DNA of 64,000 bases from Escherichia coli (GCF_029227855.1 NZ_CP074357.1), one strand, 5' to 3'. Counted from the first letter of the stretch, positions 24,001-33,000 are shown. Numbers: made by a program.

Positions 24001-27000
24001 GGCTTAAACCCCGGCTGGAAAAGAAACGTGCCCAGCATCACCACTTTTTAATTCCATTTCTGTAAAGTAGAAACAACGACAGTTCCGGCTGCATTCAAGG
24101 CTTCGGCATCTGGTCAGAAGTAAAGCGCCATTTTTCATTATAAGGGAGGTTAGATTGTGGAAGGTATTGAGACACTGAGTTTGCGGCTTGATGAGAACGA
24201 AACTATGGCCCTTGCTCAATTTGTTAAACGTCTGAGCTGGAGCGATCTACGTGGTTGTGCTGTGAGTGACGAAGAAGCCTGGGTAATGAAAAGCGCAGTT
24301 GATAAATTACAACAGGCGTTAAGGGAAGAAGGTTATGCGCCTCGATGATGCAGGCTTCGTGTTATTTTCCGATGACAAATTTTCTTAAGGACTAAGTATG
24401 AGCCAGCACTGGTATGAGGTGAAAAGCAATCAGGGAATTGTTCAGGTGATGTTAGGCTGGGATCCACCTTTGCAGTGGTTTCATATGTGCATTGATTATG
24501 ACATTAATGCAGCAGAAGACCCACTCTATACTAATCTGGCTGAACCTGATCCCTACTACGTTACTCCGGAATATCTGCAATTTGTACTTGAACGCTTCGA
24601 AATAACGGATATTGTAATAAAGCCCGATACCTCTGGGCTTTACGAAGAATTATTAATGGATCAGCTTTTAGACCGATAGCTAAGCTGCCAGCAACAGACG
24701 TGCTGGCATAATCGTCACTTAACTGTAATGTCAGATACTTCAGGTACAAATGTCCGGACTCGTTTGAAACCTATCCAAAACTGTAAATATATTTTCGTTA
24801 TAATATAACCTTAATTGAATTGCTTTCTAACAGTTCCCACTCTTCTTTTCTAAGTACATTTTTAATTATTGTTCCATTGGCAAGCGTCAGCTCATACTCC
24901 CTGTCACTATAAATAAGGTTTTTATTTTCGACTCGTCGAAAGCTGGTAATGGCAACCTTTCTTTATCCACCTAACGAATAATTATCTTTGATTTCTGCGA
25001 ACATTTAAACTCCCGTATATTAACGTCTTAAAGACAACTGAACCTTCTCGGCCCTTTCTGCGCCCCGACTAATGATACTATCGTAGTTGTCGATTTCATC
25101 ATCAGTTGGTGATTCTTCAGCTATCCATTTCAGGTACTTGATGCGGTCCATATGCTCCTCCCTGTACGATTTCCAGTGAACAAAGGCTCTACAGTATTAA
25201 GCTGCTGTAGAGCTCCTTTAACCATGCGAAAACTGTGCGTATTACAGGATGCCTAACCTTTTTGTTTCATCGATCCACGGTCTGAATTCTTCCAGTAAAT
25301 TATCATATAACTTTTCATCGCTGATCGAACCGAAATCATCCATGGCAAAGAAGTGGGTGTTATCAACCCGGCGGTCAGTAAAGTCATCCAGATTTTTGAG
25401 GATACCGTAGCTTGAACCACCCAGGCCGACAAACTTCCAGAAGATGGGGTAGTTGGCAGAACGCCGGATTGCATCTTTAATCGCCCGGGTCTTGCTGATC
25501 CCGCCATCGGTAATAAATACAACATATACCGGGATTTTCGAGTCCTTAAAGTAGTCGACAATTTCTTCCATCACAGGGGGCTCATTGTTTGTCCCACCAA
25601 GTCCCGGCAGGTTCTCCCAGGCTGAACGCTTTCCAGACCCGCGAATGGACTGAATATATGTGTCCAGGTTGTCCAGTGTGACGTTTGGATACTTCTTGTG
25701 CTTCTCTCCAAATCCCCAGACATCCATTTCACCGTCGTCGTCGAACTGGGCGGCAAGAACGGCGATGCGGTCCAGCACAGACTGAACGTTGCCCTTACTG
25801 AACTGGCCACTCATTGAGCCGGATGCGTCAAGTACAAATGCAACCGCTGCCTCAAGGGTGTCCAGTTTATTTTTAGTGAGACTGACCGAGGCTTTTTTAG
25901 CGAGGCTTACGAGGCGCGGAGATCTGGTTTCAAGTTTCTTTTCCAGACTGATACGAGCAGGCTTTGCTGGCTGCGGAGCTGGCTGTGCGACATCAACGCC
26001 AAAGCTAATGGCCAGAGGCTCAAGACCACCGTTGAAACCCTGCCCGAGCGCACGAAGCTTCCAGGCGCCATTGTGCCGATATACTTCACCCAGGATGATT
26101 GCTTTCTCACTGCGGCCCTGAGTCTCAGCCTGAAAATCAGCGATACCAGGAGCCTGAATGCTCAATAAACTGAGCCCACTGATAGTATCTTCACCATCAA
26201 TGACAACGGTGATCGCAATCTTACTGACGTTCGCCGGAACACGATCCAGTGCTATCTCAATGCTGGACTGCTGAGAACCGGTAACGAGCTTTACTGCCCC
26301 TTCAGGAGAAGACAGATTATTATAAAAGATAAAGTCAGAATCGCCGGTTACCTTTCCCTGAGCATTAAGCAGGAAGAGGCAGGTATCGGGTTCGCCTTTA
26401 AAGCCGGATTTGGCAGGGTACTGAAGATTCAGCCTGATCGCAGATTGCTGAAGCGGTATGTTTTGTCCGGATTGTAGATTCACATTAACTCTCCTGATTT
26501 TTGATTATTTTTAAAGCGCAGCGCTTATATATGTTCCCCAGGCTTAGTTCAGGACGCTGGATTTCTGGTGAGGCGTATATATGGTGTGACACCATATTTC
26601 ATCACGCTGAAGTTTCTATACCTGTTGAACTGGAATTTTGATTGACCGGGTATCTTATGTTCCAGATCCCGTTCCTTCATAAACCGCAAAAGTAACATAT
26701 ATCAGAGGGGCATTCTGTTGATAAAAGGCACGGAATACCGGCTTTAACCAGCAACCAGAGATAAATCCGTTTCCTGCCTTTAAAAGGCTCAGGTCTGAAT
26801 TAACATGACCTGCTTTCTGAAATTTCCAGTCCCCTTTCTACTACTCCCTCCTGAAAGCGGATCGCAACCAAAAAAAACCCCGGCATTGCCGGGGTATGAT
26901 TCAGCGTTGTTTTAGATGTTAACGCCGTGCTGGGAGGCAAGAGCCGCCAGGCCACCGGCAAAGCCCTGACCGACAGCTTTAAACTTCCACTCAGCGCCAT

Positions 27001-30000: not shown

Positions 30001-33000
30001 TCCATTCACGTCCATTGATATGCAGCCACTCGCCGTCTGATACATCACCCGTCCGGTCATCGCCCTTGAGCTGAACATACGGTTCATCGCGATAATTACC
30101 GAATGCATTACCGAGCGCCTGAATGACCGATTTATACCCGTCCTGAAGCTCAACAAAGGCCCCCAGATCCAGGTCGATTCCTTTGGAGCCGAACATGCCT
30201 GCAAAGCCTGATTTGCCGCTGCCCCGGTGCCAGTTCAGGTTGATCCGGATTTCACCGAAGTTATCCCGTTTGGTCAGGCTGATTGCAGGCTTCTCTTTTG
30301 TCAGCGATACCTTGCTCAGGCTGATTTTTGTCTCAACTGGCGGAGGGGTTACAACCGGAGGAGTCGGGGCTGCGGGAGCCGGTTCGTCGGCAATATTTAC
30401 GCCGAAATGCTCTGCCAGCGGTTTAAGTCCACCGTTGAACCCCTGCGCAACGAAGCGGAATTTCCAGTCATTATTACGACGGTAAAATTCACCCAGAATT
30501 AAGGCTGCTTCCTGACGGCCGCTCAGTTCGACACTGCCGCTAACCAGGCCGGTAGCCCCTTGCTCCACGTCGATGGAAAGATTACGAAGACCGGACACCG
30601 TCTGCCCACCGTCACAGGTCACGGTGAACGCAATTTTCTGGACATCAGGTTTCAGCCGGTTGAGCGCGACAGTAAAGGTTGAGTACTGGCCTTCACTGAC
30701 CAGGCTGACGGTACCATCATCGTTACGTGGCTGACCATAAAACACCATGTCCGCATCACCCTGCACCTTCCCGTCGGCATACAGGCGAAACGCCGAAGCA
30801 TCCACCTGGCCGCCCGAGGTGATCCGGACCCGCAACTCCTGGGCTGGAACGGGGGCATTGCCCCCCGGCGTCAGGTTCATTAGCGAATAACCGCTGAAAC
30901 GATATCGGAGTGCATATCGTCAATTGTGCGGCCGCGACAGGCATGGCCAAGGGCGGTAAAGTCCCAGTTGCCGTTATTACGGCGCAGCGAAGAAATAACG
31001 ATCCCGGTATGTGAGCCCTGCTCAGTCAGCTTGTAGCGAGCCAGCTCTTTGCCGGTTTGATCGACAACGCGGCAGAACGCGTTTTCGACGTCATTGAACG
31101 ACTGACCACGGAAGCTGTTTACCGTAAACGCCAGGTATTCAACGTTTGCAGGCAGTCGGGAGAGGTTGACCTTAATCACCTCATCGTCACCGTCACCCTC
31201 ACCGGTCAGGTTATCGCCACTGTGCACAACAGCGCCGCAGGTGGATTCCAGTTTGCGGAACCAGATGGTGTCAATTGTTTTACCGGTGCTGTCCATTAAT
31301 ACGCAGCCAGCATCGAGATCGATTGAGTCGTTGCCTCCAAACAATCCTCCAAGAAGACCTTTTTTCTTAACCGGATCCCAACCGAGACCGAAATGAAGCT
31401 GGCTTAATGCAGATGATTCTTTGCTGAGTGATACCGTCTGGTTCTTAACTAATGAAACCATGTTTTATTCCTTAAAATGGTAATGACCGAGACAATCAAA
31501 GGTATATTTAGTAACTGACGAAGAAAATCATATCATGATGAAGTTCTCTGACAAGGGAAATTTTGGTAGTTTTCTTCAAAAACACAAAAATAAATCCTTT
31601 TCATGGTGTTCATTTTTCTATTTTTAATTTAAATATCAATACGTTATAAGGCACTAAAAAAAACACTGACGCACTCCATAACCACTGAAGTTATTAATCA
31701 TATTATGATTGACATGTAGCGTAGACACTCATAGACTCACTTCTCAATCATAAATTTGCATGGCGTTCCGGATAATTAAAAAAAATGAACAAGAAAATTT
31801 GGTTTATGGAAGGTTTGTCCTCCCAGCGAGATATTATTCAGGGGGTAAAATCATTTGCACAAAAAAATAATTTTGCTATTACCGTATTTGCCTCCCACCG
31901 TAACGAAAGACATGAAATTCTTTCCGTTGCCGATTATTCTTTGACTGAACCTGAAGATCCTCAAAAACGTCTTCAGTTTATTCAGGAAACCATTCAGACC
32001 TACGGCATCCACCATATTCATACTGGCCGTAACAGCCAGTGGTTTGAAGAACACCGTTCAGCCATTGAATCGACCGGAGCCACCCTTACTACCGGTGCAA
32101 CAGGCGTCGACTGGTTAACTCTGGCTGACGAAAAAGTTACTTTTGCTCAGTTTATGGAGCAAAACGGGCTCCCGGTCGTACCGTCCTGGCGGGTGAATAC
32201 GCTGGCAGAATTAAAGACGCACCTCGCGGCCCCGCCGTTCTCGGACAGCCCGGTATGCGTGAAGCCGGTGACGGGTATCTATGGCATGGGATTCTGGCGC
32301 TTTGATGACAGTGCTTCGCCCATGGCCGTCTTTAATCATCCCGAACATCGTCTGGTCAGTCCGCAACAGTATATTGCAGCAGCATCGGCTTCTGAGTCGT
32401 TTAAACCCCTTGTTTTGATGCCGTACCTGCCAGGCCCGGAATTTTCCGTCGATATCCTCGCGGATAAGGGCGAAATACTCGCAGCCGTGGGACGCCGTAA
32501 GGAAGGGGCTATCCAGTATCTGGTAAACGAAGGAAGCGCCTGGGAACTGGCTTGTGACTGCGCCCGGGTTATGAAGGCCGACGGGCTGGTGAATGTTCAG
32601 ACGCGAAACGATGTGAATGGCAACCCGGTGCTGCTTGAAACCAACATGCGTCCGTCAGGCGGGGTGGGTTATACCCTTCACAGCGGGGTGAACCTTCCCG
32701 GGTTGTTTGCTGCCTTTAAGCTCGGTCTGATGTCTGAAGATGCGGTGATCCAGAGCGCCAGAAATACCTTTTCTCCGGTTGCAGTGAGATCCATCACAGA
32801 TGTCATCGTTTACCCGGAATCACTCTCTAACCATCTGAATTAAGGCGTGTTTATGTCTGATACCCTCGAAGATATGATTTATCGCCGTACCCTCTCATGC
32901 GGTACGATACAGGTAACCCGCGACCAGGGTGATGTTTCGCTCGATGACCTGTTTGATATCGCTGAAAGACGTAACCCGAAACGCGCCTTTCTGTTTGTCA

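Follow-up and report, generated by a model that had tools for sequence, protein, structure and literature searches.

A conserved intrinsic terminator sets terF apart from terZABCDE in an IncHI2-type tellurite-resistance cluster of Escherichia coli

Is terF, the last gene of the ter tellurite-resistance cluster, expressed in step with the genes in front of it? The ter cluster is widespread, occurring on IncHI2 resistance plasmids, on Klebsiella virulence plasmids and in islands of Shiga toxin-producing E. coli (STEC), and what it does for the cell is a matter of continuing debate. The literature commonly takes its genes to form a single 'terZABCDEF operon' (PMC6020474, PMC8115787, PMC12054061). 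We examined the copy of the cluster carried on the minus strand of a 64-kb stretch of Escherichia coli DNA (NZ_CP074357.1; hereafter the window, meaning all 64,000 nucleotides, to which coordinates refer unless another locus is named). A first-pass annotation, made from the sequence of the window alone, had placed a canonical terminator with a T8 run behind terE and a 430-bp AT-rich spacer with its own probable promoter ahead of terF, and had proposed that terF is independently regulated. We find a strong terminator that is conserved in related loci and sets terF apart from terZABCDE, and we consider attenuated read-through of this terminator at least as likely as independent regulation to be the way in which terF is transcribed. 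The junction comprises the following elements:

26912-27487, minus strand: terE, 191 codons, with its start at 27487 (the RefSeq start) and not at the ATG at 27691
26870-26895, minus strand: intrinsic terminator, with the hairpin ACCCCGGC-AAU-GCCGGGGU at 26895-26877, the last base of which opens the T8 run at 26877-26870
26484-26869, minus strand: non-coding, lineage-specific spacer, the 386 bp past the terminator, 43% G+C
25242-26483, minus strand: terF, 413 codons, GTG start, encoding a TerD-vWA fusion

The stem of the terE hairpin consists of eight pairs, seven of them G-C, closed by a 3-nt loop, and starts 17 nt past the terE stop codon; the 52-nt stretch around it folds with -19.9 kcal/mol (z = -3.2). 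It was the only strong match in a terminator scan of positions 24800-32000. For an estimate of rarity, we counted terminators of this strength class (at least 8 pairs, at least 7 G-C pairs and at least 7 T) in the window and, as a control, in 20 simulated 64-kb sequences, which gave two in the window against one across all 20 simulated sequences. The only other site in the window that matches the terE terminator in strength is a hairpin on the minus strand at 1777-1801 (GCCGCCTCGG...CCGAGGCGG followed by a T-run); a further strong terminator-like hairpin on that strand, GGCACGG-TTT-CCGTGCC with T8, lies at 55046-55062.

For a comparison of the terE-terF junction we drew on a plasmid collection and on representative genomes scanned once for TerF, and measured every locus with a full-length terF. 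Eighteen loci from Enterobacterales and Shewanella, the window included, carry terF after terE (after terD in locus L014) on the same strand, and each of the 18 has a G+C-rich hairpin and a T-run within about 25 nt past the stop codon of the upstream gene, the runs that directly follow the hairpins comprising 5-9 T. Across all four long-spacer loci the terminator sequence is identical. An RNAalifold consensus of 13 aligned loci contains 10 pairs with an invariant CCCGG/CCGGG core, and three of the 10 pairs have undergone double compensatory changes; the hairpin of Shewanella occupies the same place with unrelated sequence, and that of Affinibrenneria is also different in sequence, with one internal mismatch. 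The terE hairpin has the G+C-rich stem, short loop, immediate U-tract, position just past a stop codon, rarity and conservation that characterize intrinsic terminators. Judged from its sequence and that of its relatives, the hairpin with T8 after terE is a genuine, strong, conserved and old Rho-independent terminator, so that this part of the first-pass annotation is borne out. What is modestly new is that different genera keep the terE terminator but swap the cargo that lies behind it; the literature that we searched contained no mention of a terminator after terE or of a transcription start for terF.

That cargo comes in several forms. The total gap between terE and terF is short in Buttiauxella (59 bp), E. 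asburiae (81 bp), Enterobacter sp. (83 bp), Klebsiella pNDM-MAR (84 bp), Erwinia (88 bp) and Affinibrenneria (133 bp), and further classes measure 210-213 bp and 426-428 bp, the last being the IncHI2/STEC spacer. At another group of loci (Citrobacter, Lelliottia, E. ludwigii, Escherichia sp. ESNIH1 and Shewanella), a gene of 216 codons, orf216, starts 18 nt past the hairpin, and terF follows 15-16 nt behind it. Counted from the hairpin, the next start codon comes after 18 nt in the orf216 type (L004, 3129 to 3148), after 22 nt in Buttiauxella (L019) and after 47 nt in Klebsiella pNDM-MAR (L002). Where the next start lies only 18-22 nt past the hairpin there is no room for a promoter, and the downstream genes at these loci therefore need read-through of the terminator. 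Both the Klebsiella-type loci (IncHI1B/FIB, for example pNDM-MAR) and the orf216-type loci share with the window the hairpin and T-run after terE and a terF downstream on the same strand; they differ from it by the 84-bp gap in the former and the extra membrane-protein gene in the latter, and neither has the 428-bp spacer. The STEC islands (O157:H7 OI-43/48 and O145:H28) share the architecture of the window; their terminator is identical and their spacer, a homologue of 426 bp, has 85% identity, but they differ in that terF starts with ATG and not GTG, that a palindrome in the spacer is imperfect, and that terF is a pseudogene in strain 86-24 and lost behind IS3 in strain 2002-3211. At Methylococcales and Burkholderiales loci, terF lies 11-39 bp after a TerD-family gene without a hairpin and is therefore plainly co-transcribed with that gene, a linkage that we regard as ancestral.

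The product of orf216 is a predicted membrane protein with 45-89% identity among loci (L004, 3148-3798; also L008, L011-L013, L018 and L021); the gene is absent from the window, and searches of Pfam, NCBIfam and PADLOC assigned it to no family. Among these loci, L013 (labelled Chryseobacterium sp. 18061) and L012 (Citrobacter sp. 18056), which come from one study and were compared by gene coordinates and per-gene protein identities, agree in both across the ter locus, and the Chryseobacterium label of L013 probably reflects contamination or a shared plasmid.

Does the long spacer of the window hold a promoter for terF? The gap between terE and terF measures 428 bp (26484-26911), in good agreement with the 430 bp first given. 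Its description as AT-rich is only half right: at 43.0%, the G+C content of the spacer is below that of the window (47.5%) and of terZ-terE (52.3%), but the depletion is mild, and the value is far above the 30.0% of the promoter region upstream of terZ. For the probable promoter we found no counterpart. A consensus scan detected no sigma-70-like site on the ter strand within the spacer, and a scan with an approximate position-weight matrix gave 7.4 bits as the best score in the terE-terF interval, which is no better than chance (median best score in shuffled sequence, 9.1 bits), compared to 13.8 bits for a site upstream of terZ. On the plus strand, antisense to ter, a promoter-like TTCACA-18-GATTAT at 26479-26508 straddles the terF start and is directed into the spacer; with 9 of 12 matches it is probably due to chance.

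A scan of the spacer against Rfam returned no family; the matches to anti-hemB (24.8 bits, where the gathering score is 49.5; due to the hairpin) and to DLEU2_6 were dismissed as chance. The secondary structure predicted for the spacer is not significant (z = -1.6). A 49-codon open reading frame (ORF) at 26698-26549 was rejected as a small-protein gene, as it has no Shine-Dalgarno sequence and contains an in-frame stop codon in STEC. In a check for a Rho-utilisation signal, the proximal spacer proved to be G-rich and the distal part only mildly richer in C than in G (C/G ratio at most 1.6).

We infer that termination after terE is partial and that the transcripts that escape it feed terF. According to this reading, the terE terminator would end most transcripts begun at the terZ promoter, leaving terZABCDE as a highly expressed core, whereas expression of terF, an accessory gene past the terminator that is often lost and that tellurite resistance does not require, would be lower and uncoupled from the core. 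The fraction of transcripts reading through would supply terF, a form of attenuation within the cluster, and a weak or activator-dependent promoter in the 428-bp spacer may contribute. We give an even chance to the proposal that terF is transcribed by read-through, possibly with the help of such a weak promoter. With a strong, conserved terminator after terE, terF cannot equal terZABCDE in expressed amount, and on this reasoning its level of expression is uncoupled from theirs. Some route of expression must nevertheless exist, because terF is under purifying selection and functional: the window and O145:H28 copies differ by 37 synonymous but only 10 non-synonymous codons. Partial terminators of this kind, or attenuators, are found inside E. 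coli operons, between rplL and rpoB and, as T1, between rpsU and dnaG. They resemble the proposed arrangement at the terE-terF junction in having a hairpin and U-tract between functionally linked cistrons, of which the downstream one depends on read-through and is produced at a lower level; the junction differs in that terF lies 386 nt further on and may also have a promoter of its own.

Several considerations weigh against supply by read-through. A stem of eight mostly G-C pairs followed by U8 is expected to terminate efficiently, and any RNA that reads through would cross 386 untranslated nucleotides, exposed to Rho and to decay, so that little terF mRNA would result. A small yield of read-through mRNA in the face of purifying selection on terF argues for some dedicated promoter in the IncHI2/STEC lineage. 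Moreover, real promoters can match the consensus weakly or need activators, so that a failed consensus scan does not exclude one, and the matrix that we used was, as stated, an approximation. Finally, our literature search found no transcript data for the IncHI2 or the STEC lineage, and neither Term-seq nor in vitro results for RNA 3' ends at the terminator.

The foremost alternative is that terF is an independent unit, in which the terminator insulates fully and transcription of terF begins at a promoter in the distal spacer, perhaps under control through a palindrome that is unique in the window:

26579-26597, no strand assigned: perfect 9-1-9 palindrome of 19 bp, ATATGGTGT-C-ACACCATAT, with the terF start about 95 bp downstream

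Independent regulation of terF is possible in the IncHI2 lineage, although we hold a fully insulated unit of this kind to be somewhat doubtful. The half of the earlier proposal that stands is that terF does not move in step with terZABCDE, for which the conserved terminator speaks; the other half is opposed by our failure to find a promoter and by relatives that have no room for one. The terminator is indeed strong, the 386 bp past it are ample space for a promoter, and a gene under purifying selection, as terF is, must be expressed, but the best score in the scan, given above, is below the median of shuffled sequence. Conservation within the spacer at first seems telling, as identity between IncHI2 and STEC is 60-75% over the first 100 bp past the terminator and 85-95% over the distal two-thirds; the distal part is, however, conserved no more than the third codon positions of terE, terD and terF (86-92%). 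Aligned to its counterpart in E. coli O145:H28, the whole spacer of the window has 84.7% identity and 8 gapped positions, and in the comparison with third codon positions we found no conservation beyond the neutral rate. The spacer thus drifts at about the neutral (synonymous) rate, with indels. The palindrome is largely kept in STEC, where it is weakened to seven of nine pairs, but the window contains about 10 palindromes of similar size, and the half-site was rejected as a repeated operator, with 13 occurrences against about 8 expected and no clustering. We regard the palindrome as a lead, not a finding. Operators of the TerW type were also sought in the spacer and rejected, the pattern ATCATnATATGAT being present only upstream of terZ.

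Comparative and expression data cut both ways. Homologues of terF stand alone, away from other ter genes on the same strand, in P. aeruginosa pBT2436, Polaromonas and Silvania, which suits an independent unit, but sister lineages must express terF where no promoter fits. Reverse transcription quantitative PCR in K. pneumoniae P1927 revealed induction of terZBCDE by 100 uM Te(IV), of terBCDE by Mn(II) and of all terZABCDEF by Zn(II); terF, and likewise terA, was not among the genes raised by Te(IV) or Mn(II) (PMC12054061). In that study terF did not follow terZBCDE under Te(IV) or terBCDE under Mn(II), which would suit an independent unit, but the gap in the lineage of P1927 is short, and terA showed the same deviation. 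The P1927 data fit a damped response of terF, with the same reservation about terA.

It is unlikely, in our assessment, that the spacer is a scar without a regulatory role, left by gene loss or replacement (for example of orf216) or by a past insertion, in a lineage that is losing terF. The junction is certainly a hot spot of variation: the gap measures 59-133, 210-213 or 426-428 bp, and in other loci orf216 takes its place. A truncated start of orf216, all that Klebsiella sp. BIGb0407 retains of the gene, sits directly after the hairpin (L014, remnant at about 3357). IS1 lies within the spacer of pEC361_1 (L092), where terF is intact, and within that of pEC261; in E. coli 2002-3211 (L007), IS3 is inserted in the spacer and terF is deleted; and in O157:H7 86-24 (L005), terF is a truncated pseudogene of about 100 codons next to iha. 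The near-neutral evolution of the spacer, with indels, is also what a scar would show. Against this, we rejected descent of the spacer from a decayed orf216, as tblastn, blastn and a five-sequence profile hidden Markov model run on the six-frame translation were all negative (E > 6), and the spacer resembles none of 80 TerF-containing loci of other species (no match at E <= 0.1). In plasmids and in E. coli genomes, the only location of the spacer is the terE-terF junction, both of IncHI2 plasmids (100% identical copies and variants of about 91-93%) and of STEC chromosomal islands (about 85-86%). Where terF is intact, it is under purifying selection in the comparison of IncHI2 with O145:H28, and most of the ter clusters on plasmids include the gene. 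The idea of a scar concerns the origin of the spacer more than its function and is compatible with read-through or with a promoter.

Rather improbable, we think, is a more elaborate scheme, in which the terE terminator would be a regulated gate that meters a swappable module (terF, orf216-terF or spacer-terF) and the IncHI2/STEC palindrome a control element bound by a regulator, so that terF would follow a condition-specific programme apart from the TerW-controlled core. Very improbable is that the hairpin serves mainly as a 3'-end stabiliser or processing barrier, protecting terZABCDE mRNA from 3' exonucleases after cleavage of a terZ-to-terF transcript: intercistronic hairpins do confer differential stability on mRNA segments by an established mechanism (the Rhodobacter puf operon, the repetitive extragenic palindromic element between malE and malF of E. 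coli), and the structure is kept here while the stem sequence varies, with the downstream gene very close to it in some lineages, but all 18 hairpins have the immediate T-run that is the hallmark of an intrinsic terminator and that a stability hairpin does not need.

The terminator has consequences for how experiments on the cluster are read, as the splitting-off of terF affects the interpretation of quantitative PCR, polar mutants and complementation. The position of the terminator explains why terF is dispensable and why it is frequently lost or truncated, and it suggests that TerF accompanies the TerD/TerC complex as an accessory of low abundance. A clone with terZABCDE but deleted for terF retains the full minimal inhibitory concentration of tellurite (PMC11003894), and transposon insertions in terE and terF of R478 are without phenotype according to the summary in PMC12054061. 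The phenotype of resistance to tellurite, phages and colicins comes from the literature on R478 and KL53 only.

The cluster itself is familiar. The ORF list and the RefSeq annotation of an identical plasmid identify 25242-31461 on the minus strand as a canonical terZABCDE-terF tellurite-resistance cluster of the R478/IncHI2 type. This plasmid, pSH111_227, is typed IncHI2A, and its annotation agrees with the gene order in the window. Upstream of terE, the genes are:

30880-31461, minus strand: terZ, first gene of the operon, TerD family, 193 codons (ORF list; RefSeq and AMRFinder annotation of the identical plasmid)
29723-30880, minus strand: terA, 385 codons (ORF list, RefSeq)
29245-29700, minus strand: terB, 151 codons, with its start at 29700 (RefSeq start; Pfam TerB match) and not at the TTG at 29760
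28182-29222, minus strand: terC, 346 codons, membrane protein (ORF list, RefSeq)
27555-28133, minus strand: terD, 192 codons (ORF list, RefSeq)

Proteins of the cluster match the Pfam families TerD, TerB and vWA-TerF-like, and the flanks are those usual for ter loci, with divergent biosynthetic genes and terW, terX and terY upstream. A 6.8-kb query spanning the cluster matched 2,494 plasmid records, and for 702 the identity was at least 99%; among the matches listed the best were 100% identical IncHI2 plasmids from Salmonella, E. coli and Enterobacter; an R478-like variant is about 91-97% identical to this segment. With the same genes in the same order and orientation and a 6.8-kb segment identical to many IncHI2 plasmids, the window holds a copy of the R478/IncHI2 ter cluster, from which it shows no material difference. 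The R478 cluster was described by Whelan et al. (1995, as cited in PMC12054061 and PMC3064760). Our observation is thus a refinement of the annotation of a long-known R478-type ter system and no new mechanism.

Part of that refinement concerns gene starts. As the first-pass annotation had noticed, mechanically called ORFs are too long at their 5' ends for terE (26912-27691, running into terD) and terB (29245-29760, running into terA), and the corrected starts that it proposed, 27487 and 29700, are identical to those in RefSeq. The alignment of the Pfam TerD model to TerE begins at residue 1, and both corrected starts have the proper Shine-Dalgarno-like sequences claimed for them, AGGAG 6 nt before the terE ATG and AAGGAA 6 nt before the terB ATG.

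Upstream of the cluster, the 30%-G+C region between terZ and a divergent ATP-grasp gene contains two palindromes of the form ATCATnATATGAT, at 31527-31539 and 31697-31709, the first of which overlaps the -10 hexamer of the promoter-like site that scored 13.8 bits:

31527-31554, minus strand: promoter-like site upstream of terZ, TTGTCA-16-TATGAT with an upstream TG, the -10 hexamer overlapping the palindrome ATCATGATATGAT

The second palindrome overlaps the -35 hexamer of a promoter-like site on the plus strand. A palindrome upstream of terZ has been proposed or reported as a TerW binding site (PMC7843439), and palindromes of this form are candidate TerW operators.

At the other end of the cluster, TerF has the architecture of its family, an N-terminal TerD domain (PF02342, residues 1-161, E = 4e-35) joined to a C-terminal vWA-TerF-like domain (PF10138, residues 212-412, E = 2.6e-69); searches of NCBIfam and PADLOC with TerF gave no meaningful family. 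An AGGAG motif lies 7 nt upstream of its start codon, which is GTG in the window and ATG in the STEC copies. Behind the gene stands a second hairpin:

25179-25213, minus strand: hairpin after terF, GCUCUACAG-N10-CUGUAGAGC followed by CUUUGUU, -22.1 kcal/mol over 80 nt (z = -2.1)

This hairpin may form a weaker, terminator-like end of the unit. Further downstream of terF, the minus strand carries an ORF of 43 codons at 25020-25151, which RefSeq lists as hypothetical and which has no family match; the gene annotated at its position in an R478-like plasmid spans 456 bp, and the copy in the window may be truncated.

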